From Atractiella rhizophila (taxonomy: Eukaryota), in NCBI GenBank assembly GCA_021432655.1, contig MU271268.1, positions 1 to 64,000 of the forward strand: a stretch of 64,000 bases of DNA, read 5' to 3'. This document shows, in pieces, positions 2,130 to 21,270 of this stretch. The notes beneath the pieces were generated by a model. That model searched no databases, was not told the DNA's origin, and saw nothing but the letters and a program-made list of their open reading frames with translations. Each line of letters starts with the position of its first letter. Positions within the stretch are counted from its first letter, which is position 1. The position numbers were made by a program, and so were the translations under genes.

Positions 2130-2885
2130 ACATTTAGCTCTGTTGAACCATACTCTCTCTCGATTTCTTCACACCCTCGAGTATATCTTTCCCATCAGGA
2201 TCATCGATCAACATCAATAACGAGCAGAAGGCAGACCTTTTTTCCGCATGTGTGTCTGTTTCGTCGTTAACAGTTACGTGGACGCTGGCTTCTTTGTGCT
2301 TTCCCACACTTGAAGATGTGCCTCAGGCGGCTCGTGAACATCAGGTTTGTCAAGTCCCCGAAACTTAGGAACAGTATTACTTCGTGCAGAGAAACGACCG
2401 CGGGTAGTGCCTTCCTCTCGTGAGTGTGGGCGAGGAGCGGCAGATCAAAGGTGGAGTATAATCCGTGATGCCATCATCGTTGTGAATACTATGGTCAGTG
2501 GACCATTTAAAGTTGGATTGAGTGCTGTAGGGATACTGTTTTGTGAGATTTATGTCAGTTCAGAGAGAAGGACAGATCAAGAAGGCAGGATATGTCGACG
2601 AACGTGAAGTAAATTACGTTAACTAGGTTGCAAATTGATACAATTATGAAATAGAGGACGCCATCTCGCATGAAGATTGAGATGAGACGCGTTGGAGTTG
2701 TGTTGGGCCAGTGAGTGATGAGAGGTCTATTGGGGTGTGAGCAAGTAGTGAGACGGAACATCAAGTGACGAACACGAGCATGAATATAGTAGGGGTTGTA
2801 TCGTAGAGGAGAAGCGGGATCCTGTGCTCCCCATTAATCATCTCACCCAAAACTGGTGAGAGCACGGACCAATAAGCCCATGTGC
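2130..2885 (-). pseudogene. 5'-truncated pseudogene of the 7-TM DUF6533-type family (copy A)
   Basis: Keeps exons IPLLLYDTT, RLISIFMRDGVLYFIIVSICNLVNVIYF and LNGPLTIVFTTMMASRIILHL. An in-frame TGA follows at 2445-2447 where the paralogues have Arg. No TM1-4 exons upstream. Confidence 0.85.
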
Positions 2886-4760: not shown

Positions 4761-5459
4761 ATTAACCTCGAATTTCCCTGGCGACGACGAGGTTGGAGAG
4801 CTCTCTAGTAACGTATAAGATTATCCTAGACCTTGCAAGCGGTATTCCATAGGAATATTATCTATTATCTGAGTTCACACTTCCACTCGATCAAATTATC
4901 GTTGTGTTCCTACATCTGAAGTCAGCAAGCAGTACCTAAGGCATTCCGTACTCTGTTCAGTAGGGAGTAAAGGAGGGACGGAATGGACGTACACAGGATG
5001 GTTTGGAAGTCACAGACGCTTGAGATGCTTCCACGAGCTCGACGAGGAATGTTAGTGTTAAAGCGTGCGCGTCGGCTGCTGTACTACTTTGAACTGTTCC
5101 ACGGCTCCATCCCTCGCGTGATAGTAGCAGCATCTTTTGACAACTTGGATTGGATCATGGAAGCAGCTTGGAAGTGCTGGGGCTTCGAGTTGTACTTTTG
5201 AATCATGAACGGATGAAACGGAATGCATGACGACTACTAAATATACACTAGTAGCATGAAAATGGAATATATAGCTTTATTTTGCAATCATGTCGGCGCA
5301 CAGAGAACATATATCGCCGGAGATACTTGAGCTCAAAGCAGCGAGCTCCATAGCCGTTCCAGTTACGCTGACTGCTGCTGTAGTAAAACAACGAATGAAG
5401 TAGTAACAGAAGATACTGGATATTACCTGGACAGGATTTGATCGGAAACAGCACAGTCA

Positions 5460-7028
5460 TTACTTCTTGTGAACACCAGCGCCTTCATCCGACACACGAT
5501 AGTCTCTCTCTAGACCTTCAGCATCCTCCGCAGCCTCAAGTCTGTCTTCCCGTCAGGAGGATTGACTGGCATGCAAGAAATGAGGAATCGGCGGACCTCT
5601 TGTCAACATTTGTCTCTGTCTCAACCTTTACTATCACACCGGAATAACTAAGGTGTAAACCCTCTGGTCGCCTGCCTACGGTTTGAAGGTGAACGTCTGG
5701 TGATTGAACATCAGGTTTGTTAAGGGACCGAAATTTTGGAACAGTATTACTTCGTCCAGAGGAGCCACTGCCTCCTTCTCGCGAGTTTGTGCCAGGCACA
5801 ACAGATCGAAGGTGGAGGACGATGCGAGAAGCCATGATTGTCGTGAAAGTTAGGGTAAGGGGACAATTCAATGTTGGGTTGACTTCTTTCGGGAAGCTGC
5901 AATGTTAAGTTGATTCAGTCTTGTTGAGGATGAAATGAGCTCGCTACGAACGAAAAGTAAACCACATTAACCAGATTACAAATTGATACGATGATGAAGT
6001 AGGCGATTCCATCGCGCATGAAGATCGAGATGAGGCGGGTAGGAGGGGCTTCGCGCCAGTGAGAGATGAGCGGCCTATTAAAGGTTAGGAACAAGCCGGG
6101 AGGAACATCAAGGAACTTACACCAGCATGAAAATTGTCGCAGTGGTGTCGTAAAGCAGAAGCGGAATCCTGTCGCCACCATCAACAATCTCATCCATGTT
6201 TCAATGAGGACACGAACCAATAAACCCATATGTAGCTAGAAGAAACATTAGCATTACTAGTACTCGACTGACGAGAAGACGAAGCACCTGTCGCGTCCTC
6301 TAACAGAAATGCATCCCCTCAAGCCAGGTAATCTATGGAATCCGTCAATGTTTGTCGTGCTTGTCCCGACGACCTACAAAGGCAAGGTGTTGTCCTCTGC
6401 AAACGATGCCACTTGAACGGCGGTACCAGCAATGGCGAATGTTGCAAAGAAGTAAGCAACCCATTTGCGACGGTTCCACATTACCCATACTCTTGCTCCG
6501 AGGAGGAACTCGCAGTTCACTACATCCATATGAGAGCGATGACCTATCAAACTGAGAGCAGGTACGTACGAAAGAGGATGGTGGTAGCGACAGGTTCGAG
6601 AAAATGAACCCTGTTGCACAATTTTGGGGTGAATTCAAACCAGAGAAGGCACATGGCCAGGACGAAGGTCAAGAGGCCCCAGTAGCTTCAGAAATCTCGC
6701 GTAAGTCTACATTTTGCGGCGCAAACTTGTTGGAGGAGGGCTACGTACCGATTAAAGAAGAAAGAGACGCGGACTGGCGTCCAACGCTCTGCCTTCCACA
6801 TTGCCCTGTATTCCGCTGGGAAAGTAAGGATAAAGTCCCATCCATAGAGTGCGAAACAAGCTGAGTTCCATTTCAGTCGCACTCGCATGACGAGGGAGGA
6901 AAACACGTACCTGTGAGATAGACACGACTCGCAGAAAGTACACCTTCTATGTCTGCTCGGTGGATTGCGAGATCGAGCTGTTCTTGAACTGAAGGACTCG
7001 CATCCGCTGAAAGACCGGACGACGACAT
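5460..7028 (-). CDS. 7-TM GPCR-like DUF6533-type membrane protein (copy B), ~10 exons
   Basis: ATG at 7028 (MSSSGLSADASPSVQEQLDL). Spliced exons give CFALYGWDFILTFPAEYRAMWK..FFFNRYWG..NCEFLLGARVW..LRGCISV..IPLLLYDT..RDGIAYF..ASRIVLHL. Stop TAA at 5460. GT-AG junctions keep frame. Confidence 0.88.
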
Positions 7029-8989
7029 GACGTGCCAAGTGCCAAGAAACTTGTAGGAAACGCTGTCTGCAACAGCTAAGACCCTGGCCAAGAGGCAAAG
7101 CGGGCTTGGCTGTTTTATACGTCTCGTTTGAATTAAATTGTTCTGAAAGTAAAAATCCTTCTTACTGCAGCATTGAAGCTCTGAGAAAGTCTTGGCTTTG
7201 CAAACATAAAAAATTGAAGCCCACGCAATGAAGGACTCAGAAGGAAGACCCACCAATTGGGCTCGAAGGACGTGAACGTTCTGAACAGCGGTCACAGTTT
7301 CAACTATGAGAATGAACGAAGAAGAGAAAACGTTTCCCTCGCTCTGTCACCATAATCGGACGAGAGCTTTTGTCTTCTGCCTTCCCAGACTTCTGCGAGA
7401 ACAAACGTAATATTCTCGGAACGAGATGAAGGCACATTACCATTAACTGGTTTGAGCATAGCACTTCTTGCTCATAATCCAGTTGATGGACATCCTCACA
7501 ATTGAGTAACTGTGTAATTCGTAAATCATGAAAAGTCTTAACGTGATACAATGATCAATCATCCGTCATGAAGACGTTCCATCCAGTAATGACCCGGAAA
7601 TATTGTTTTTACGCTGTTTATTTCGACGAGGAAAACCCGATCACTAGGTAGTGCTTGGGTCTGGTTCTCATTGGTTTAGGAGAACCTAAACCGGAGCAGC
7701 TTGAAGGATAGAGTTATTAGACGATCGTTTTCATATATGTCCCGAGAAGCAGATAGTCAAGACACGCATTCACCTAAAGTATCTGTAAGAGTTGGATTTC
7801 CCAAGGAGCTACAGGAATGAATGTTGCGTACGACTCAGTTTCCTCGTGTCGGAACACTAAGATCGAATGGAATTAGGCAGGAGCACCAGGGTTACGGACC
7901 TTCTGGGCTCACTTGTTGTCGATCGAAAAGGATAGAGACGAAGCTGAATTCAAGTGGATCAAGACTTGCTTAGCTTGAGCGAGCGGAGAATGAGGACTTT
8001 GGTTCGCAGTCCGTGTCTAACCCCCTCGAATCAGTGGACAGTCAAAGTCGCAGCTGAAGCTACCAGCATAGGAAATCACAAGTCTGGTCCTTTAAAGTTT
8101 ACTATCTGTGTAGTCCGTATGACACTATTGACCAGAGGCACAGTTGTAAGGGCAGGCAGAGGTTTTTGAACCCCCGCTTAACCGTCGATTCATCAATCGA
8201 TCGATCAATATCTACTGTGGAAGGAATGACTCCTCCAATGTCTGGCATGGGTCACCGTCAATCGGTAATAGCGTGAATATTCGACTATTTCCAACGGTAT
8301 CAGTAGTGCTTATCCTTTCTCTGAGGAAGTGAATCATACACCCTCGGAGGAGTCCATGTCCTTCTTATTTAGAGAATGCTTGCCTTTCCTATGTTGCAGA
8401 GCACTTCTGGTCGTGCAAGTCGCGTCGTGTACGAGGCATTGGACTTCTCGGCTCTCCTGTCGTCTCACGCTTAGGCATTTGTCTTTTGTCCATGGAAAAG
8501 AGCGAACCAACAGAAACCGAGGTTTCAGGACTATCTAATAACTAGTTATCCCATCAGCGTCATCGTCAGATATGGACAATGAAAGCAGAGCTGAAATACG
8601 CACACATGGAGGAGGATGATAAAGATTGTTTCCGAAGGGTGCTTCAAATTCTATTGAAGGCGTTGCGTTAGGGAGACAGATGTTAGTCGCTAGATGCCTC
8701 CTCCTTCATTCCCGCTTGAGCGCAAAAGAGGAGGATGGACCGTGTTACAGGAGAAAATCTATCCGCCCCGCTGATGGATTGGACGAATGCAGTGCTGTTG
8801 CGCGAATTGATGAGCGTGAAAGATCTCGAAAGACCCTCGGCGAAGGGATGGAGAGGAACTGATGCAGCTGTTATTCCCGCCTGAACAACCTCAAGATATG
8901 TCCGCGCGTCTGCTCGATCGAATCGTTGCCCTGCTCTCACAGACCATCTGAAGCGAGGACGTGGTGCATAAAGTAAATGTTGGGCGCTC

Positions 8990-9595
8990 GCCGTACTCTA
9001 CTATAAATAGAGGCAAGACCAGGGACGGGAATGTCGTCCAAAAAACCATTGAATTGTTGGTCACAGCCCTTTGATAACTCTCGAGCGTCTCTCGAGAAGT
9101 CGGGCACTACAAGGGAGAAGACGATGAGAATCGCTCACCACATACAAGGTAACACCTGTCCTCAGCATATGTCATGGTCTTACATATACATGAGAGAAAG
9201 AGAAACATGCCTGGTAAAGTTATCGAGGGACAGAATAGTCATTGGGGAGAGAAGAGGCGTGCGCACAAGCGATCCAAGGCGAGAAGACATCCTTTGCCAC
9301 GGCGCGTGGTCGACCAGTTTCTCACTTTTCTCCTTCGTGCCAGTAGGAGAGCATCGCCACAACCAAGCTCCTCGCCATGCAGCTCGTCACAACTCGCGGC
9401 TTCGATCGCAGCCCATCTGCCTGCTTTATCCTGCCCTTCACTGCCGCTCTCTCTAGCATCATCGTCCAGTTGTAAGAACGAAAGCGGAACCGACAGTGAA
9501 GGGAACCAGTTTCGGAGAAAAGTGTAGTTGTCAACATTCTGAGTTGGGACTCTGCTAGGATGATGTAGGTGAGATGGAGAGCGAGGAAAGTGCAA
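8990..9595 (-). pseudogene. Degenerate nucleotide-sugar (UDP-galactose-type) transporter fragment
   Basis: LQLDDDARESGSEGQDKAGRWAAIEAAS aligns with VQLDDGAGGKSGLGNEGEDKVRGLLAIGAAS of 16597-17806. The DNA also matches 16730-16860. Multiple frameshifts. Confidence 0.75.
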
Positions 9596-11193
9596 TCATT
9601 ACCATGCCGCTTGGAGATAACAGCGGAGCAGCGCACGGATATGTTTGCAATTAGGGCCAGAAATCGCATAGCACACGAAACGAGAGAAAGGTAAAATATA
9701 CGGCTTATATCCAACCGCGCGCACCATACGTGTCAAATTCGACCCGAAGCAGAACCAATATGTCGGTACAGGTCCAATGGCAAATGTCATATCTTATTTA
9801 CAACCATGTCCGCAGACACAAGGGAATGATGTACACCACAGGGATAGCACTTGAAAACTTATGCAGCGTATGGAGAGTGCGCGAGCCGTTCCGGTCACGC
9901 CAACCGCGTTTTGCAACGAATGAGCAACAGATGATGGTATTGGGCAATACCAAGATCGATCAGATTTGAGTGAAAACTGCCTCATTATTTCTTCTTTCCA
10001 CCAGCACCCTCATCAGACGCACGATAATCTCTCTCTAGACCTTCGGCATCCTCCGCAGCCTCGAGTCTATCTTTCCCTGTTAGGAATAGAGGCAAGACCA
10101 GGGACGGGAATGTCGTCCAAAAAACCATTGAATTGTTGGTCACAGCCCTTTGATAACTCTCGAGCGTCTCTCGAGAAGTCAGGCACTACAAGGGAGAAGA
10201 CGATGAGAATCGCTCACCACATACAAGGTAACACCTGTCCTCAGCATACAGCAATGGTCTTACATATACATGAGAGAAAGAGAAGCATGCCTGGTAAAAG
10301 TTATCTAGGACAGAATAGTCATTGGGGGGAGAAGAGGCGTGCGCACAGGCGATGCAAGGCGAGAAGACATCCTTTGCCACATCGCATAGTCGATTTTCCT
10401 CTTCCGTACACCATCTAGTTTCTCACTTTTCTCCTTCGTGCCAGTAGGAGAGCATCGCAACAACCAAGCTCCTCGCCATGCAGCTCGTCACAACTCGCGG
10501 CTTCGATCGCAGCCCATCTGCCTACTTCATCCTCCCCTTCACTGCCCTTCTCTCTAGCATCATCGTCTAGTTGTAGGAACGAAAGCGGAACCGACAGTGA
10601 GGGACCAGTTTCGGAGAAGAGTGTAGTTTTAACAGTCAGAGTTGGGATGCTAGGATGATGTAGGTGAGATAGAGAGCGAGGAAAGTGCAATCATTACCAT
10701 GCCGCTATTATTCAATTTCTAGCCTTGTAGATAGAGGAGCGGCGCACGGATATGTTTGCAACTACGGCCAGAAATCGCATCGCACACGAAACGAGAGAAA
10801 GGAAAGAACACAGCTTATATCCAACAGCGCACACCGCACGTGTCAAATTCGACCCGAAACGGATCGAATATGTCGGTTCCAATGGGAAATGACATATCTA
10901 TTTACAACCATGTCCGCAGACATTAGGGAAAGATGTACACAGCAGGGATAGCACTTGAAAACTTATGCAGCGTATGGACAGTGTGCGAGCCGTTCCCGTC
11001 ACGCCAACCGCGTGTTGCAATGAATGAGCAGCAGATGATGGTATTGGGCAATACCTTGGTAAGATCGATCCGATTTGAGTGAAAACTGCATCATTATTTC
11101 TTCTTTCCACCAGCACCCTCATCAGACGCACGATAATCTCTCTCTAGACCTTCGGCATCCTCCGCAGCCTCGAGTCTATCTTTCCCTGTTAGG
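9006..11193. repeat. ~1.1-kb tandem duplication (9006-10085 / 10086-11193)
   Basis: Both units start AATAGAGGCAAGACCAGGGACGGGAATG and end CCTCGAGTCTATCTTTCCCTGTTAGGA. Highly similar, with indels. Confidence 0.95.
10086..10690 (-). pseudogene. Second degenerate nucleotide-sugar transporter fragment
   Basis: Duplicate of 9006-9595: LQLDDDAREKGSEGEDEVGRWAAIEAAS. Confidence 0.75.
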
Positions 11194-12648
11194 AGGACCT
11201 TTCTCACAAGGTGGTAGACAGACCTCTTTTCCACGTTTGTCTCCACTTCAACATTAACCATCACAACTGCATTACTAACCTGCAGCCCCCCCTCTATTCG
11301 CCTTCCGACACTGTGAATGTGTGCATCTGGTGGTTCACGAAAATCAGGCCTGTTAAAGCTCCTAAACTTTGGAACTGTGTTAATTCGTCCAGAGGAGCCA
11401 CTGCGGCTGCTGCCTCCCTCTCGTGAGTTTGAACCAGGGGCGACAGACCGAAGATGGAGCACGATTCGAGAAGCCATGATCGTCGTGAATGTCAGAGTAA
11501 GCGGACAGTTCAGAGTTGGGTTGATTTCTGTTGGGATGCTGTAGTATCACGTTGGTTTAGGAGAATCTTTGGCTGAAGGTGGTTACGAACGAGAAGTAAA
11601 CCACGTTAACCAGATTGCAAATTGATACGATAATGAAGTAGGCGATGCCATCGCGCAAGAAGATTGAGATGAGGCGGGTAGGAGGGGCTTCGCGCCAGTG
11701 AGAGATGAGTGGACTGTTGAAAGGTTAGGAACAAGTCCGGAGGAGATTATCTAGCTCACACGAGCATGAAAATCGTCGCCGTTGTATCGTAAAGCAGAAG
11801 TGGGACCCTGTCGTTATGATCAGCGGTTTGATCATGGAAACGTGCGACGAACCAATAAATCCAGATGTAGCTTTTACGCGAAACATTGCGTCAGTTTTTA
11901 AACCACATAGACGTGAAGACGAATTACTGGTCACGTCCTCGGATCGAGATGCAACCCCTCAGGCCAGGTAGTCTATAGACAGGTCAACAAATGTCTCCTT
12001 TTCCTCGCAGACGTACAAACGCAGGGCATCGTCCTCAGCAAATGACAGCACCTGGACAGCCGTGCCAGCTATGGCAAAAATCCCAAAGAAGTATGCGATC
12101 CATTTGCGACGGTTCCACATTACCCATACTCTTGTGCCGAGGAGGAACTCGCAGTTCACTGCACCCATGATTGTCAATACTTATTTAACTACATGGTTTG
12201 AGGTGAGCGGACGCACAGAAGAGAATGGTGGTGGCAGCAGGCTCGAGAATATGGAACTTGTTGCAGGTTTTCGGGGTAAATTCAAGCCAGAGAAGACACA
12301 TCGCCAGGACGAAGGTCAAGAGACCCCAGTAGCTGCAGAATTCTGAGGTGAGTCTTCTACTTGTTGAACAAACTTGCGGAGCTGTAAACACACCGATTGA
12401 AGAAGAACGAGACACGGACTAGCGTCCAACGTTCAGCCTTCCACATCGCCTTGTATTCTCCTGGAAAAGTGAGGATGAAATCCCAGCCATAGATCGCAAA
12501 GCAAGCTGTTAGCTCATTTGGTTAAGCTCACATGAGGTGGAGGAAAACACAAACCAGTGAGATAGACGCGACTAGCTGAAAGGACTTCTTCCAAAGATGC
12601 TCGTTGGTTAACGAGATCGAGCTGTTCTTCTAGCGGGGGGACGGACAT
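11094..12648 (-). CDS. 7-TM GPCR-like DUF6533-type protein (copy C)
   Basis: ATG at 12648 (MSVPPLEEQLDL). Same exon layout as copy B, frame kept. Ends DEGAGGKKK* at 11094. Confidence 0.88.
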
Positions 12649-14158
12649 GATTTGCCAAGTGCCAAGGTACTCAAGAAATTGAGAGAAATATGGAGTCTCC
12701 AGCTAAGACTGGCCAAGAGGCAAAGATGCTTTGGCTGCTTTATATGTCTCGTTTGAATTACTGTAAGTTGCTCTGTTCTGAACGTCCTTCTTGCCATGAA
12801 GCTCTCAGAAAGCCTTGGCCTTGCAAATAAAAAAAATTGAAAGACACTGGATACAAGGCTCAGAAGGAGACCCACCCATTGGACTTGATGGACCTCAGCG
12901 TTGGTTAACGTTTCAACTGTGAGAACGAATGAAGGATATTTCTTTTCCGTAGCTCTGTCACCATAGTCGGGCGAGAAGTTTGTTCTACATTGCGTTTGCT
13001 GACTTTCTGACAGCGCGAGAAGAACCGCAACATTCTCGGAACGAGATTTCAGGGCCTTGAGGGTCACCTCGATCTTTTTCTCATATTTCGTTGACTGGGA
13101 GGACGGAGCCTATGGGCAGTCGTGTCACGACCGCAAAGCACTGTCACTGTGCTTCGAACACTGATGCCTAAATCAATCCGCTATCATCTCTTTGACGACT
13201 CGAGAAGGGTTCATGATGGAGGACAAACCCTGGATGCTTGCATGTAGCCTGAGGCTTGAACTCTGTTTCGTCTAGAGAGTAGTTGGGAACATACAATAAT
13301 CGGACATGCGTTTTCAGACTCTACAGCGGAATGTCATGAGTTAGACAGTAATCGGCTGCAAGTAACAACCTATGCGTTTCCAAGCTCGACCGTAAGGAAC
13401 CTACATGAGAGAAAGGTTAGGATACCTCGAAAAAGTTTTCCAGCTACAAACCAGTCCATTAGGTATTGTTTTCCTTCGTAAATGGGTCGGTCGGTAATAA
13501 TCGGGAGGGACAGCGCGAACTTGACGACTTGCACGAGCCCATCCGCTTAGGACCACACCCGCTTGCCACAAGCTGTCGTGTCGTGGCCGCAATCATGAAG
13601 GAAACGATGGCCTTTGTCTAGATCGTGTGTTCCAGATATTGCATTGGCTGCTAAAGATAGCTTTAGCAATGGATTCAAGCTATTAGAGAAAGCAGACCTT
13701 CCATTTGGGAGAGGGAATTGCCTGATAACCTGAGGTGCGAAGTTGCTTGCTGAAGTGCATTTTCGCAGGGTTCGAGGGAAAGCCTACGGTAAGGTGTTGA
13801 TAGGCCATATTGAAATACGGCCTTTAATATTGGATTCGCGAAAGGAACGAGAGGAACAGGAAAGAAGAATGTGCGCGTCATCCTCTCCTCAATTATGAAC
13901 CGCCAGTCGTCTATTGTATAACTTTGAAGAGAAAATGGTTCCGCCAATGTTCTGCTTACAGCCTCGACTGAGGAATCTAAATAGTATATCTTCAAGTGTC
14001 CCGCGCACGAGAAACTGGAGAAAGCTACATGACCTTCCAAGTACCCCAACCCAGTTAAGTTTTGCAGCAAGTCATGTATAGCGTGCCAATCTAAAGATGG
14101 CGGAGACAGGGTGTGATCTTGGACAAGGCCGCGTAAGCGGGCACAAATTGCATTGGTG

Positions 14159-15757
14159 TTATTTCTTCTCGATTGCATCTGCATCATCTGACGAACGATA
14201 GTCTCTCTCTTGACCTTCCGTATCCTTATGAGCCTCAAGTCTATCGTTCCTATTAAAATCTCCATCAAACATATAAATTGCGCGGTAAACAGACCTCTTT
14301 TCCACGTTTATTTCTGTTTCAACGTCAACTCTCACACCTCCATAACTGAGATGTAGATCCCCCTCTCTTCGCATCCCTCTCCCTACACCCTGAAAATGCG
14401 AGTCTGGTGATTCGCGAACATCAGGTTTATTAAGAGATCGAAATTTTGGAACCGTATTACTGCGTCCATTGGAGCCACTGTGGCTGCTCGCACCTCCCTC
14501 CCGCGAGTTCGAATTAGAAGCGACAGATCGTAGGTGCAGCACAATGCGGGACGCCATTATCGGTGTGAATGTGAGTGTAAGCGGAGAGTTCAAAGTTGGA
14601 TTGACTTCTGCAGGGATGCTGTGTTGCAAATGCTCGTTAATGAGACAAAGTCTGGCTCGAAATAGGAACTACGAACGAGAAGTAAACCACGTTGACTAGG
14701 TTGCAGATTGATACTATGATGAAGTAGAGGATTCCATCATGCATAAACGTCGAGAGGAGGCGCGTAAGTGGTGCGTTACGCGACTGAGTGATGAGCGGAC
14801 TTTTGAGGACTCAGCAGACACTCAGTGGGAGTTCAAGTGACGCACACGAGCATGAATATCGTAGCTGTCGTGTCGTAGAGGAGAAGCGGAACCCTATGCT
14901 TCCATTCATCAATCTAATCCCTAATTTGGCAGGAGACGCAAACCAATACAGCCATATGTAGCTATGGGAAGGATCAGCATGGTTAATCCGACATTGGTGA
15001 AGACAAATCACTTTTGGTCTCCTCTAACAGAGATGCATCCCCTCAAGCCAGGCAGTCTAAAACATTGTGGTCAGCATTTTCTTTCCCACAACCCAGTGAC
15101 CTAAAGGCATACAAAGGCAAAGTCTTGTCCCCAGAAAACGACCACACTTGAATAGCCGTCCCTCCAATGGCGAATATCACAAAGAAATAAGCAACCCATT
15201 CACGACGGTTCCATAATACCCAGACTCTTGCACCAAGGAGGAACTCGCAGTTCACTTCATCGATGTTACGCCAATCATTTTATATTGTATTGCGAGGAGT
15301 GGACTCACAAAACAGTATGGTGGTGGCGACAGGCTCGAGAATGTGAACCTTGTCACACGTTTTTGGAGTAAAATTGAACCAGAGCAGGCACATCGCCAGG
15401 ACGAACGTCAAGATGCCCCAGTAACTTCGAAATTGTTCCATGAGCCTTCTGGTTACGCGAATTTCGAGGAGACAGACGTACCGGTTGAAGAAAAACGAGA
15501 CTCGGACTGGTGTCCACCGCTCCGCCTTCCATATGGACCGGTATTCGCTTGGGAAAGTTAGGATAAAGTCCCAGCCATAGAGCGCAAAACAGGCTGCCCT
15601 CAGTTTAGTCAAGTTCCGCTGGGCGAGGACAGCGCGAACCCGTGAGATAGATACGACTACTAGAAAGGACTTCCTCCAAAACTGCACGCCGGACAGCGAG
15701 ATCAAGCTGTTCTTCGACATTAACATTTATGTTCTCTGAAGGATCTGATGATGACAT
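14159..15757 (-). CDS. 7-TM GPCR-like DUF6533-type protein (copy D)
   Basis: ATG at 15757 (MSSSDPSENINVNVEEQLDL). CFALYGWDFILTFPSEY... Ends DADAIEKK* at 14159. Confidence 0.88.
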
Positions 15758-16596
15758 GGCACTTGTGTGCCAAGGAACTTGTGAGGAATGTGGACCAGAG
15801 CCGCTAAGAAGAAAAGAGGCTGGGCCACTTTATAATTCTTGTTTGAATGTAGACTGTTCTGAAAGCTCTTCTTGCTTGAAACTCTGGGCAGCTCTTGGCC
15901 TTGCACATAAACATGACGTGCCGCGATGAAGAAGATGAACTCAGAATAAGAACCCACTGTTGGGCCCAAAGGGAACTTAACGTTCACCGTTCAACAGCGG
16001 TGCAGGAAACGAACGAAAAGTATATATCCTTCTTGCACGCATGTTTCTCACCGTATTCGGACGAGAGCTTTGTTTTACCTCTACAGTACCAGCTTCGGTG
16101 AGAATAATCGCGACATTCTCGGAACACGGAACAGGTTTACGGCGAATATACTTCAACTCGTCTCACAGCATTTCTTGCTCATATATTTGAGGTGCTGTGA
16201 GAACGGAACCGGAGAGCACGCGTCCCCCCAGCAGATGAAATAAAATCATGAGAAGCAACGAGTTTGATGAATTTTGCATTCCAAGAGAGAATACAGAGCA
16301 AAGGCAGCTGGATTGATCCTCAGTCCTCATACATTCAAGGAGAGATTCTAGTTTTTTGAATATAGAAGTTAAAACAAGCGTTTTCATACGCCATCGCGGG
16401 AAGCAACCATTTGCCAGATCAATTCACCTGTATGATCCATCAGTGACGCATTCTTCGAGAGGCATATCTGGAGGAAGTGGTGCGTACTACTCGGCTTTCC
16501 TCAAGGGAAAAGCGAAAGATGGCAAGGATTCAGCCATGGGACACGAGTCTACTCAAGGCCATCCATGCCATAGTAGTATCCTGCTTTCAATTTTCT

Positions 16597-17806
16597 TTAC
16601 CCTAAGCTCCACACTCCTGTCGCTCCGATCACCGCCATTGCTCCAAAATACCATCTGAGCCCTGGACGTAGGGCATAAAGGTACATTCCACCTGAACTGG
16701 TCACTGGACATGCCATGAATGAGCGGCGTACTCTGCTTAAAGTAGATAGAAGGAAGAACCATGGAAAGGGAGAACATACATACGATCGACCCTGAGGTCA
16801 CAAAGCCCTTGGTGACGCTTGAGAAGTCGCGCACGACGAGGGAGACGAGGATACCGCCGAGGGATTGGAGTAGAATGACTCCCCAGACAAGCGGGGTATA
16901 ACCTATCATAGGGGTGAGTGTTATTTCCAATAGGTAGGACGGGGCAGCATGCCTAGAAAAAAAATTTCTAGGGACAAACTCGTAGGTGAGCCGAGGAGAG
17001 GTGAGGCCGCAAAGGCGATAGAAGGCAAGGCGAGGGAGACATTCTTAGTCCACAACGTATCGTTTTTCATCCCCTTCTCTCGTTCCTCCCTCTCCTTTGT
17101 TCCTTCCACTTTTGCCGGAGTGGGAGGAGAGCGTTTCAGCAACGACTCAAACCAGCACCCCGCCACGCCGCTCGTCACACTCGCTGCTCCGATCGCAAGC
17201 AATCCGCGTACTTTGTCCTCTCCTTCATTGCCCAATCCACTCTTCCCTCCAGCACCGTCGTCTAGTTGGACGAGAGCCACGCCGACGACTAGGAGGAGAA
17301 AGCGAACCATTTCCTCAGTGACAGCCTGTGCGAGAAGAAGAAGGAAGAAAAGACAGCAGTTGTCAGCAGTTTGAGTTGGTATGTCAGGACGTAGGTCGGT
17401 GGGGAGAGTGAGGAGAGCGCTATGTACTGTCACTTCCTTTTCAATCCAATTCCAGAGAAGATGGATGGAAGACTGCGCACTAACAAGTTGTTCTGCAACC
17501 ACATATCGTTAGAAATTGAAGTCCGGAGGGAAGGCAAAGACAAACCTGAAGTGTGTACAGGAGTGAAGGAACACACATCATCCCTACTTCTCCGCCTTTC
17601 AGTTGGCGAATGACCTTCCAAGGTGGCGTCCCGCTGACGGACAGTTCCATCGCCAGCGAAAAGAGCAACTTTACGACCTCTGTAACCAAAACTGCAGTGC
17701 GCGGATCGTAGGAAGTGGCGTGGAGCGAGTGCGAAGTGAGGAGGGAGATGGACGAATTCTGGATGAGGAGAAGGAGGGGGAGCAGAGGACGCGGTATGGA
17801 GAGCAT
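16597..17806 (-). pseudogene. Nucleotide-sugar (SLC35A/UDP-galactose-type) transporter with an apparent 1-nt frameshift
   Basis: Motifs AVLVTEVVKL, VPSLLYTLQNNLLYIA, TYQLKLLTTAVFS, GVALVQL, SGVAGCWFE and GGILVSLVV..SSVTKGF. After RKWFA the frame hits TAG near 17290, while LLLVVGVALVQL continues in another frame. Confidence 0.8.
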
Positions 17807-19239
17807 TCTACGAGCTTTCTAGTGTAATTTAAATACTAGCTCATTCAGCAAGTCCTTGCTGTTGCGCGACTCTAATGTTGTTAATGGTAATTTGAAAGTT
17901 TGCCTGGGTTTGAACATTGGCAGGGTCGGTTCCAATTTTCCAAGTTTGGAAGAACCTTTTTCTGTTACCATTCACTCATTTCTTTTTTACGTTCTTTAGC
18001 TGAACAAAGGATTGTGTATTCCTGACGATAAAGCTTGACTACAAGTTACATGCGTCGCAGAGCTCCATGATGCGGTCTCTCGTTTGATAGACACGTCGGC
18101 TCCTCGCGCACAGAATGAGAAGTGACAACGCACCCCCGAGAAGTTGACATCGACTGAAGCACGTGTTTGTGATCTTTCCGTCTATTTCGCATTGATGAGA
18201 TGCCATCTAGCAGGCGAATGCGGGAAGTCGACGATGACGGGGGAACTAGAAAAGGAAAAAAAAGTCATGCACGAGCAGAAATGCCTCCTCGCGTTCGCAC
18301 TCTTATCAACTCATCGGCCAGATTGTGGTTGGACAAGTATTAGATGGAAGCTTTTGTCTAGTTCTCTCTCTGGTGGACGAGAGTGTTGACAAGTATGGTT
18401 ACTGCAAGTTATACGCCACTTGTAAGGGGATTGATTTTCGTTTCCTCAACCTTCCCTGTTGACTGCGATAATTTCTGTCACCAGGGAAGGGATCTGCGTA
18501 TCATTCCCATCCCTTGGCACATCCTTAGCCTTGCCCTCGATTCCTTTCTATTTATAGCTGAACTGTGCCGCTCAATCATATTATCAATCCAGAGCGACCA
18601 GAACTGGCGGAAGACGGAATCTGCACCTGCACTCCTGGCCTCGAATGATACATGATAGCAATGACATTGGTTGGAAGCGATGAGAATGTCGTGATTAGGG
18701 TAGAGATCTCAATGATTTTTGAAAAAAGCTCACGACCAGTGGGTGGGAATGTGATCGTCAACGGCGCGTACTATATATCAAGCCGGCTCCGTTTCATTTG
18801 ATCTTTGCCTTCCACTGGCAATCGGGGAAGTTGAATTGTACGCACCTCGTCTTCCTGATATTTCTGCTGGAGGTGTGAGACTGACCAACGCCCAGGCGAC
18901 TCGCTCTCTTGATGCGCTGTTTCCCATATTGCGTATGAAAACGCTGATATTGTATCTTACCTTTCTGGCTCGTTGCATTTCAAGCAGTCCTGAAACTTTG
19001 ATGAATCAAATGCGAGCACCCACGCTTTGCGGTTTGTTGTGGCAAGAAGATTTCGAAAATAACGTTGCTTTCTCATTCCAGACCTTGACTGAGAAAGCTT
19101 CTGGAGAAACAGTTGACCCAGTTCTCAGTACTTCGAATTGCATCGCATGGCCTTGCTTGTAAAATGTCCTCTGCAACTGAATATAATGAGCAAAAACGCT
19201 TTGCTGAAACGAGTTTGAAAGAGATGAAGCTAACGTGAG

Positions 19240-19666
19240 GTAGTCTTGTTCCGAGAGTCTTGCGCGCTTACTCCGGCAGAAGTCTGCGGTGAGCAGAAGC
19301 AACACTCTCGTCCGAATATGATGAGGGAAGGCTTCGAACAAGTATAATTCTTTTGTTGTTCTCTTAGTTGATACCCGTTGATGTCCCTGGAGCCCAATTG
19401 GTGGGTCTTCCTTCTGAGTCCTTCAGCGCGTATTTTATGTGCGAGCCAAGACTTTCCCAGAGCTTCCTTCCCAACCTTTGAACGCCCAAGGTTGGAGGGA
19501 CGCACTTCGAGAATAAGGTCGATGGTGTTCATCTTGCAAGAAAGACTTTTAGAATAATTTATATTCAAACAGGACCTATAAAGGAGCGTGCTTGGCTCCT
19601 TGGCCTCCCAGCTTGGACTTCCGTCTTCCTCACAAAATTCCTTGGCACCAAGACTAACCAAGGAGA
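19240..19666 (+). promoter_or_regulatory. Promoter shared by the 7-TM paralogues (also 7030-7430, 12650-13050 and 15760-16130 on the minus strand)
   Basis: TATAAA 70-100 bp upstream of each ATG (7113-7119, 12739-12745, 15829-15834, 19577-19582). Conserved TCTCGGAAC and TCGG(A/G)CGAGA blocks in all four. Confidence 0.7.
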
Positions 19667-21270
19667 ATGTCATCGTCCGCTTCAGCGGGTCCGAGTCCCA
19701 CTGTCCAAGAACAGCTCGATCTCGCTCTTCAGCGTGCAGATTTAGAAGGAGTACTTTCCGCCAGTCGTATCTATCTCACTGGTTTGTATATTCCTCATTC
19801 CTCCAGCCAGCTTAGCAGAAATTACACACAGCTTGTTTTGCGCTCTATGGTTGGGACTTTATCCTTAGTTTCCCAGCCGAATACAAGGCAATGTGGAAGG
19901 CAGAACGCTGGACGCCAGTTCGAGTCTCATTCTTCTTCAATCGGTATGCCTCACTCCTCTGTTGTTCGCTCCGTAAAGTGAAAGACTAATCAAAATTGTG
20001 CAGCTACTGGGGTCTCCTGACTTTTGTCCTGGCGATGTGTCTTCTCTGGTTTAAATTCACCCTGAAAACGTGCAACCGAGTTCATATTCTGGAACCTCTG
20101 GCTACCACGATTCTCTTTTGTGAGTCCCTTCCTCTCAAGCCGAGTATCGATAAATAGGTTGACATGACGTGAACGCAGTGAACTGCGAGTTCCTCCTTGG
20201 TACAAGAGTTTGGGTAATGTGGAACCGTCGTAAATGGATTGCCTACTTCTTTGGATCATTTGCATTCGTTGGAACGGCTGTTCAAATTTGGTCCTTTGCT
20301 GAAGACGACGCCTTGCGTCTGTAAGTCTTCACGTTGATCACCGTACAGACGACAAATGCAGACGCCTCGGTTAGATTGCCCGGCTTGAGAGGATGTATTT
20401 CTATTCGAGGACGTCAACAGTGATTCGTCTTCACGTCCATCTAGCATGAGTAAAGCTGATATATCCACAAGCTACATATGGCTCTATTGGTTCGTACCTC
20501 CACCAAAATATGAATCAGATTGCTAACAATACTCACAGGATCCCGCTTCTCCTTTACGACACTACAGCGACAGTATTCATGCTCGTGTCCGTCGCCGTAC
20601 CCCTAACTGACTGGTTACTCATTTATTTGAAGACCACTCCTTACTCAATGGCGAAACGCGCCTCCTACCCACCTCATCTCGACCTTCATGCGCGATGGCA
20701 TCCTCTATTTCATCATCGTATCGATTTGTAATTTGGTCAACGTGATTTATTTCTCGTTCGTAGTGACCTTATCCTAGCTGAACTTTCTCCATGAACTGAC
20801 GGATATCTGCAACACAGCATTCCTAAAGAACTCAATCCGACTTTGAACTGCCCGCTTACCCTGACGTTCACAACGATGATGGCTTCTCGCATTGTTCTCC
20901 ACCTTCGAACTGTTGCTTCGGGTCCAAACTCACGAGAGGGCGGCAGTAGTAGCCGTAGTGGTTCACATGGACGTGTTAACACAATCCCAAAGTTCCGGAG
21001 CGCTAACAAGCCTGATGTCCTTGAATCACCAGACCTTCATCTCCAGAGTGTAGGGAGGCGGAGAGAAGGGGATTTACATCTCAGTTATGGAGGTGTTAGG
21101 GTCGATATTGAGACAGAAATAAACGTGGAAAAGAGGTCTGTTCGCTCGCCATTCTTGGTATTGAATGAAGATCCTGATCCGTGAACAGGCTTGAGGCTGG
21201 AAAGGATGCGGTGGATCAAGAGACAGAGTATCGATTGTCAGATGAACCCGTTGTTGTAAAGAAGACTTGA
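19667..21270 (+). CDS. 7-TM GPCR-like DUF6533-type protein (copy E, inverted)
   Basis: ATG at 19667 (MSSSASAGPSPTVQEQLDL). Same exon layout as B-D. Last exon RLEAGKDAVDQETEYRLSDEPVVVKKT* ends at 21270. Confidence 0.88.

Follow-up and report, generated by a model that had tools for sequence, protein, structure and literature searches.

The function of DUF6533 was obscure until a 2026 study linked a structural relative, Gpe1 of Ustilago maydis, to peptide sensing in plant colonization (PMC13652807). In the text of that study, Gpe1 is described as a G protein-coupled receptor (GPCR) that is activated by a peptide which host proteases cut from the fungus's own Pit2, and it is reported to co-evolve with this ligand. 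The structural relatives named there come from basidiomycetes, and many contain DUF6533; they share a glutamate in the first transmembrane helix (TM1) with a Lys-Tyr pair in TM2, a basic residue at position 3.50 of TM3 (R3.50), and an Asp-Gly (DG) motif in TM6 that reads NN in Gpe1 itself (PMC13652807). Here, we analyze a cluster of four intact DUF6533 genes, which we call B, C, D, and E, at positions 5460 to 21270 of a 64,000-nt stretch of DNA from Atractiella rhizophila (the whole stretch is called the window below), together with a decayed copy, A. A. rhizophila belongs to the Pucciniomycotina, and Gpe1 comes from the smut fungi, in another subphylum.

The proteins of this cluster resemble the Gpe1 family in carrying DUF6533 at TM1-TM2 and, in a model of C, in having seven helices and a class A-like fold. 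They differ from it in TM2, where B to E have Arg-Tyr and Gpe1 has Lys-Tyr, as judged from the text of PMC13652807 and not from an alignment. In addition, the family is expanded in A. rhizophila, where it numbers at least 34 copies.

Ectopic (interlocus) gene conversion and unequal crossing-over have been described for tandem chemoreceptor, immune, and fungal gene families. The A. rhizophila locus is like these in having tandem paralogs with pair-specific tracts of high identity that span silent and intron sites, discordant protein trees for different segments, an apparently chimeric paralog, and a partial tandem duplicate within the cluster. It is unlike them in that the tracts are old (5 to 9% diverged) and few, with no ongoing homogenization of copies that are about 27 to 30% apart, and in that one partner, the paralog P0003, lies on another contig. 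We consider it probable that a handful of old ectopic recombination events have affected these old, tandemly arranged receptor paralogs. Such a process is an ordinary one, well known for tandem families, and brings in no new principle; the genes are additional members of the DUF6533, Gpe1-like kind.

Four intact paralogs and a decayed copy

We compared the first 24 kb with the whole window and then used a four-way genomic alignment to derive gene models. The self-comparison contained four full-length repeats of about 2 kb each (B, 5435-7427; C, 11072-13047; D, 14159-16125; and E, 19376-21265, which is inverted), with a DNA identity of 69 to 74% in every pair. B, C, D, and E have a common architecture of 10 exons and 9 short introns, all of them GT..AG. 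A previous sequence-only reading of this DNA had described seven-transmembrane paralogs with patchwork similarity at 5460..21270, and the ends of this interval are indeed the stop codons of B (5460) and of E (21270). The repeat of copy A spans 2289-2884 and was 70 to 71% identical in DNA to each of B to E in the self-comparison.

Homology among the four copies is confined to the stretch between a point about 400 bp 5' of the ATG and the stop codon, and we found no homology between copies downstream of the stop codons of B to E. The four intact, transcribable paralogs and the decayed copy A probably descend from old duplications of a unit with these limits. We also found that the number of synonymous differences per synonymous site (pS) is 0.49 to 0.56 in all six pairs of B to E. 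The copies are old, with synonymous sites close to saturation and a nearly star-like divergence. Because of this near-saturated, star-like divergence, the four sequences carry limited signal of their history, and chance agreement between them is common.

A TATAAA sequence is conserved about 100 nt 5' of the ATG in all four genes (B, ~7130; C, ~12760; D, ~15850; E, ~19570). We observed that it belongs to a longer block, ATTCAAAC..TATAAA, which each of the four promoters has kept, and that there are more such blocks near -330 and -395. They are probably core promoter elements that were retained since duplication.

Tracts of raised identity between pairs of copies

We performed a GENECONV-like permutation analysis of the six pairs, using 838 polymorphic sites among 1808 ungapped columns, and a stratified version in which sites were shuffled only with others of their class (promoter, exon, or intron). 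The smallest p values were those of a B-E fragment upstream of the genes (p = 0.0002; stratified, 0.0003) and of a D-E fragment across the border of exon 9 and intron 9 (p = 0.0002; stratified, 0.001). A B-C fragment in exon 8 had values of 0.0018 and 0.020, respectively, and a B-D fragment inside exon 9 was borderline, with values of 0.0086 and 0.013 that are uncorrected for six pairs. In this analysis, no significant fragment was found for C-D or C-E.

The B-C tract is 164 nt long and has an identity of 91% in the pairwise alignment, versus 70% overall. It also covers the last ~30 nt of intron 7, a stretch that is misaligned in the four-way alignment, and in the core of the tract 105 of 111 positions are identical, with other pairs at 76 to 82% there. 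Within exon 8, B and C differ at 7 of 30 synonymous sites (pS 0.23) and at 1 of 93 nonsynonymous sites; in their other exons, 119 of 227 synonymous sites differ (0.52). Since the similarity is both silent and intronic, it points to copying of DNA and not to selection at the protein level. Thus, the sequence-only reading was right to pair B with C in the third intracellular loop (ICL3), with near-identical DNA that runs into the intron; this was its strongest point, and the positions it gave for this stretch hold as well. Its pairing of D with E in the same part of the gene is visible in intron 8, where these two copies are 80% identical.

The D-E tract has 86 of 95 positions identical, while D or E compared to B or C gives 71 to 77% there. 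Pair-specific raised identity that includes silent and noncoding sites and is flanked by ordinary divergence, as expected of conversion, is found both in the B-C tract, which runs into intron 7, and in the D-E tract, which runs into intron 9.

In the upstream region, B and C are 78% identical over 280 ungapped columns, compared to 58 to 72% for the other five pairs, and they are collinear from -399 to -45. The proposed kinship of the B and C promoters is therefore borne out for the region as a whole, but not for all of its parts. The B-E upstream fragment, in which 116 of 139 positions are identical, contains a 36-nt block that is the same letter for letter in B and E and holds a CCAAT-like motif, whereas B and C agree at 28 of 35 positions there.

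To describe how the copies group along the alignment, we use BC|DE for the split that unites B with C and D with E, and likewise for the other two. There are 165 parsimony-informative columns, with 79 for BC|DE, 43 for BD|CE, and 43 for BE|CD. Their mix, in the same order, is 34/30/26 in the part that starts with the promoter and ends in exon 7, 28/13/7 between there and the middle of exon 9, and 17/0/10 at the end, and in permutations this heterogeneity had p values of 0.002 for one breakpoint and 0.016 for two. In quartet likelihoods, BC|DE is strongly favored in exon 7 to intron 8 (difference in log-likelihood [ΔlnL] of 16) and in the last 300 columns (ΔlnL of 20). The inner branch has a length of 0.03 to 0.07 in four segments and of 0.26 to 0.30 in two, and proportional branch lengths were rejected in comparison with unlinked ones (likelihood ratio test statistic 63.2, 20 degrees of freedom, p = 2.3e-6).

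Closest relatives of the 5' and 3' parts of the genes

Comparisons that take in other paralogs were made at the protein level, with support given as ultrafast bootstrap/Shimodaira-Hasegawa-like approximate likelihood ratio test. The tree of exons 1 to 3 contains the clade (B,E) at 92/91, and that of exons 3b to 7 contains (B,P0003) at 97/96 and (C,E) at 73/92. In contrast to these 5' parts, the exon 8 tree contains (B,C) at 98/89 and (E,P0003) at 93/86, and the tree of exons 8 to 10 contains (E,P0003) at 96/95, with D beside them at 83/87. Two clades were rejected by approximately unbiased (AU) tests in the 5' part, (E,P0003) at p = 0.021 and (B,C) at p = 0.041. Three were rejected in the 3' part, with p values of 0.001 for (B,P0003), 0.0003 for (C,E), and 0.001 for (B,E). 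In a table of nearest neighbors over four segments, the groups P0023/P0025, P0005/P0032/P0009, P0028/P0031, and P0012/P0021 keep their partners throughout, while B, C, E, and P0003 change partner between segments. Two 5' types and two 3' types occur in all four combinations in these four genes, which would require at least one exchange near intron 7.

We used 31 other paralogs to assign polarity to the residues on which the sequence-only reading had relied. At the N terminus it had set B with E and C with D. The first of these pairs stands: B and E share derived Q, D, and G residues, and their exon 1 DNA is 83% identical, compared to 70 to 78% for other pairs, in line with the clade found in exons 1 to 3. 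The second does not, as the two E residues shared by C and D are also carried by most other paralogs that have a residue at these positions (18 of 23 and 15 of 23, respectively) and as their exon 1 identity, 70%, is the joint lowest with that of B and D.

In the region from TM3 to the second extracellular loop (ECL2), B had been set with D and C with E. C and E share derived T, D, I, and H residues and form the weak clade seen for exons 3b to 7, but at the DNA level they are not closer to each other than other pairs are (in exon 4, 82% identity with a pS of 0.58). A recent C-E conversion was rejected on synonymous divergence (pS 0.58 to 0.73). The states shared by B and D are mostly ancestral, with the A of GARVW found in 25 of 29 other paralogs and a V in 13 of the 21 that were tallied in the five commonest states, and B~D as a true affinity was rejected on this residue polarity. 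The actual partner of B in this region is P0003, a paralog on another contig that is 94% identical to B there.

By our preferred explanation, ectopic homologous recombination (gene conversion and/or unequal crossing-over) would have replaced a few stretches after the duplications and would have left different parts of the genes with different closest relatives. The main switch would lie close to intron 7, where TM5 reaches the cytoplasmic side, with the pairs {B,P0003} and {C,E} on its 5' side; on its 3' side, the pairs would be {B,C} and {E,P0003}, and D would be near the second of these. Smaller tracts would join B and E in the promoter and N-terminal exons, D and E at the end of exon 9, and perhaps B and D in exon 9. 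We infer recombination as the cause, as well as its direction and the number of events, from the tracts and from the conflict between the 5' and 3' trees.

The alternative is that no exchange took place, so that the genes have the single history ((B,C),(D,E)) and the changes of partner stem from homoplasy at saturated sites, ancestral residues, and uneven constraint. Several results fit such a history and weigh against recombination. Among the four copies of the window, the quartet likelihoods of six DNA segments include none that rejects ((B,C),(D,E)), which the whole alignment favors by 28 lnL units, and four of the six are equivocal, with a ΔlnL of at most 2.5 (the promoter, exon 1 to intron 3, exon 4 to intron 6, and the initial 200 columns of exon 9). 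Adjacent informative sites share their pattern no more than expected by chance (p = 0.68), an index like the pairwise homoplasy index is weak (p = 0.045 to 0.18), and the near-saturated synonymous sites, with a pS of about 0.5 in all pairs, lead to high homoplasy. If the stratified test is corrected for six pairs, only the B-E and D-E fragments remain significant, and those of B-C and B-D fail by this test taken on its own. The boundaries of the segments were picked after the data had been inspected, and the clades given to the AU tests were named only after the trees were known. P0003 is known solely as a public protein model with a faulty N terminus and may be mis-joined, and the likeness of C and E in the 5' part is at the amino acid level only. 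The likenesses of B with D and of C with D, as family-majority states, fit this alternative, and the residues cited in the sequence-only reading are mainly conservative swaps (V/I and A/T).

Even so, we regard a history without exchange as unlikely, since it does not account for the lowered synonymous divergence of the B-C tract and its reach into intron 7, for the D-E and B-E fragments that survive stratified permutation, for the rejection of proportional branch lengths, or for the rejection of the swapped clades by AU tests in the protein trees. In addition, partner switching is limited to this subgroup of the family. For the DNA of the four copies, a single tree for all segments is compatible with the data as to branching order and incompatible with them as to proportional branch lengths. 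The claim that the closest partner changes beyond chance is supported at the broad scale, by the breakpoint permutations, but not at the fine scale, by the adjacency and homoplasy tests. Exchange of segments between paralogs, as the sequence-only reading had proposed, is supported by the tracts, permutations, branch lengths, and protein clades, but the events are few and old, and two of the eight affinities from which it had been deduced (B~D and C~D) are ancestral. Much of the finer patchwork described there is shared ancestral letters or chance.

Selective constraint and the proposed adaptive shuffling

We calculated mean pairwise dN/dS (the ratio of nonsynonymous to synonymous divergence) for structural regions of B to E and obtained 0.20 for extracellular parts, 0.08 for helices, 0.01 for inner loops, and 0.21 for the tail. 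The regional means span 0.01 to 0.27, and the largest value of any single pair is 0.39. The outer parts are less constrained than the helices. In these pairwise comparisons by region, we found no sign of diversifying selection, with all values well below 1.

These values bear on the further proposal that recombination reassorts promoter, extracellular, and intracellular modules and thereby diversifies the specificity and signaling of the receptors. The proposal would fit the presence of all four combinations of 5' and 3' types (B, P0003, C, and E), the position of the switch at the TM5/ICL3 border, which divides the outward-facing half from ICL3, the DG motif of TM6, and the tail, and the faster evolution of extracellular parts than of helices. 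It would also fit what the text of PMC13652807 says of the structural relative Gpe1, which binds a peptide and co-evolves with it. We nevertheless consider adaptive shuffling improbable. The dN/dS is well under 1 in all regions and pairs, so the claim that exchange diversifies the receptors is not upheld; the events are few and old, with a pS in the B-C tract that compares with that of B-C elsewhere as 0.23 to 0.52; and conversion raises the likeness of copies and not their difference. None of these genes has a known ligand or function, and what would be the promoter "module" is a mosaic in its own right, with no sharp limits.

A more specific form of this idea is that exchange at TM5/ICL3 splits a ligand-facing half (N-terminal helix to ECL2) from a signaling half (ICL3, the DG switch of TM6, TM7, and the tail) and so allows combinatorial coupling of peptides to outputs in a root endophyte; we offer it as a speculation with little chance of being correct. 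Independently of that, it is natural to ask how repertoires of such receptors expand and change in a root-associated fungus whose family counts at least 34 members, part of them in clusters that probably exchange segments.

Family membership and predicted fold

The Pfam family PF20151 (DUF6533) matches exon 2 of B (42.8 bits), D (49.5 bits), and C (scored on P0002; 45.9 bits, E = 5.9e-12) above its cutoff of 24.1 bits. The family was scored on B, C, and D, and exon 2 of gene E is 83 to 89% identical in DNA to exon 2 of these three. A Pfam scan of the translations of exons 4, 8, and 9 returned no family, and there was no match to 7tm_1 either. Among 1.84 billion representative sequences, we found 2281 homologs at E <= 0.001 and 413 at E <= 1e-10. 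In the named collection, A. rhizophila accounts for 34 of the 34 matches at E <= 1e-10, and several of these proteins are encoded on common contigs, so that at least 34 paralogs form a large and partly clustered expansion in this species.

An AlphaFold2 model of C, built from a 105-row alignment, has a predicted local distance difference test score (pLDDT) of 82.4, a predicted template modeling score (pTM) of 0.75, and seven helices, at residues 6-53, 60-84, 89-121, 126-147, 177-200, 205-233, and 240-264. In this model, a long N-terminal helix is continuous with TM1, the second outer loop contains a hairpin, and a disordered tail begins at about residue 265. In a Foldseek search of the PDB, the best 21 of the 50 matches listed are class A GPCRs, mainly peptide receptors, with E values from 5.9e-4 and a probability of 1.00. 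Over about 280 columns, the model is matched best by animal class A peptide receptors, such as those for neurotensin, orexin, and somatostatin, which share with it an arginine at the cytoplasmic end of TM3. They are unlike C in their 8 to 16% identity, with TM-scores of 0.20 to 0.53 and root mean square deviations of 6 to 11 Å over the 50 matches listed. As far as the model goes, the likeness to animal class A GPCRs is a resemblance of fold and not membership.

The residues EY(K/R), NRYW, G(A/T)RVW, and (R/H)DGI of B to E lie at places that fit the patches of the Gpe1 family, an equivalence judged from the text of the paper. E48, R69, Y70, and R117 (C numbering), the last of them in TM3, are invariant or near-invariant in 105 relatives. 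The label "seven-transmembrane receptor" is a reasonable one for B to E in view of the modeled fold, and we infer from it that these proteins act as receptors. In the literature searched on DUF6533 and on gene conversion among fungal GPCR paralogs, we found nothing on recombination in the DUF6533 family. These proteins may already figure among the structural relatives of Gpe1 that accompany PMC13652807.

Gene models and expression

Contigs of the public runs X15 and/or X16 contain joints at all 9 modeled introns of gene E, and the 18-nt micro-exon 6 is present in these spliced contigs. Because each modeled joint is carried by spliced contigs, we conclude that E is transcribed and that the common exon structure is correct. 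Among about 6 in 100 of the raw RNA reads of each of the runs X20 and X22, none matched E, a sampling that carries no weight as a test of its expression. Two homology searches that recovered B, C, and D did not return gene E among annotated A. rhizophila proteins, and E may lack an entry in public annotation.

The gene models of C and its public counterpart agree (Table 1). We observed that the P0001 and P0007 models excise part of exon 9 of B (5597-5896) and D (14295-14618), respectively, and that P0007 additionally reads into intron 9. Since the E transcript contigs cross the equivalent exon 9 without a joint, the public models of B and D look wrong at this exon. This analysis therefore provides corrected 10-exon models of B and D, an expressed and apparently unannotated gene E, and a defined breakpoint for work with chimeras.

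The position of intron 9 is conserved in all four genes (B, 5542-5596; C, 11176-11223; D, 14241-14294; E, 21136-21188). In C and D this intron is open in frame, and its retention would still give a full-length protein, while retention in B and E would lead to an early protein end. In run X15, two transcript contigs track E to 20917 and 21136 and then continue with 255 letters of unlike sequence. These chimeric contigs are probably the result of an assembly path into the transcripts of other paralogs, and several family members seem to be expressed in this run.

Table 1. Positions of genes, shared upstream regions, high-identity fragments, and the tandem repeat in the window
Feature	Position	Strand	Description
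Gene B	7028..5460	-	367 aa, 10 exons; predicted DUF6533 seven-helix receptor; P0001, BT69DRAFT_1101014; public model deviates inside exon 9
Gene C	12648..11094	-	364 aa, 10 exons; identical letter for letter to P0002, BT69DRAFT_1348604
Gene D	15757..14159	-	375 aa, 10 exons; P0007, BT69DRAFT_1318132; public model deviates in exons 9-10
Gene E	19667..21270	+	372 aa, 10 exons; nine GT..AG introns
Copy A	2313..2820	-	5'-truncated pseudogene; exons 7-9 alone recognizable, in-frame stop codons (tblastn)
Shared upstream region, ~400 bp	B 7029..7427; C 12649-13047; D 15758-16125; E ~19244-19666	- (B)	5' limit of duplicated unit
B-E upstream fragment, B side	7136..7310	-	Contains 36-nt block (7229-7264; read 7264..7229) identical to E
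B-E upstream fragment, E side	19361..19559	+	Identical block at 19390-19425 (read 19390..19425)
B-C tract, B side	5942..6104	-	3' end of intron 7, exon 8 (TM5 end, ICL3, TM6 with RDG motif), first bases of intron 8
B-C tract, C side	11582..11744	-	Partner of B 5942..6104
D-E tract, D side	14288..14388	-	Last part of exon 9, first part of intron 9
D-E tract, E side	21048..21142	+	Partner of D 14288..14388
B-D borderline fragment	B 5695..5751; D 14402-14461	- (B)	Exon 9; 53/57 identical
Tandem repeat	9006-10085 and 10085-11194	.	Units 89% identical; 3' end of C (from intron 9) and downstream flank

Other features of the window

The first unit of the tandem repeat downstream of C carries a stray exon 10 fragment at 10003-10074. 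The 89% identity of its units and the stray exon show that a later, younger unequal recombination took place within the cluster.

The interval between D and E contains a gene for a nucleotide-sugar transporter (PF04142) at 16553-17807 on the minus strand, about 0.8 kb upstream of D, where two pieces of open reading frame match the family with E values of 1.6e-9 and 2.2e-11. We also found a 290-nt relic of a transporter gene at 10284-10573, downstream of C in the tandem repeat, that is 68% identical to part of 16946-17268 and has a copy in the other repeat unit (9006-10085). This relic hints at earlier duplications that moved transporter and receptor jointly. A short direct tandem repeat, 900-1085 versus 1085-1272, has an identity of 89%.

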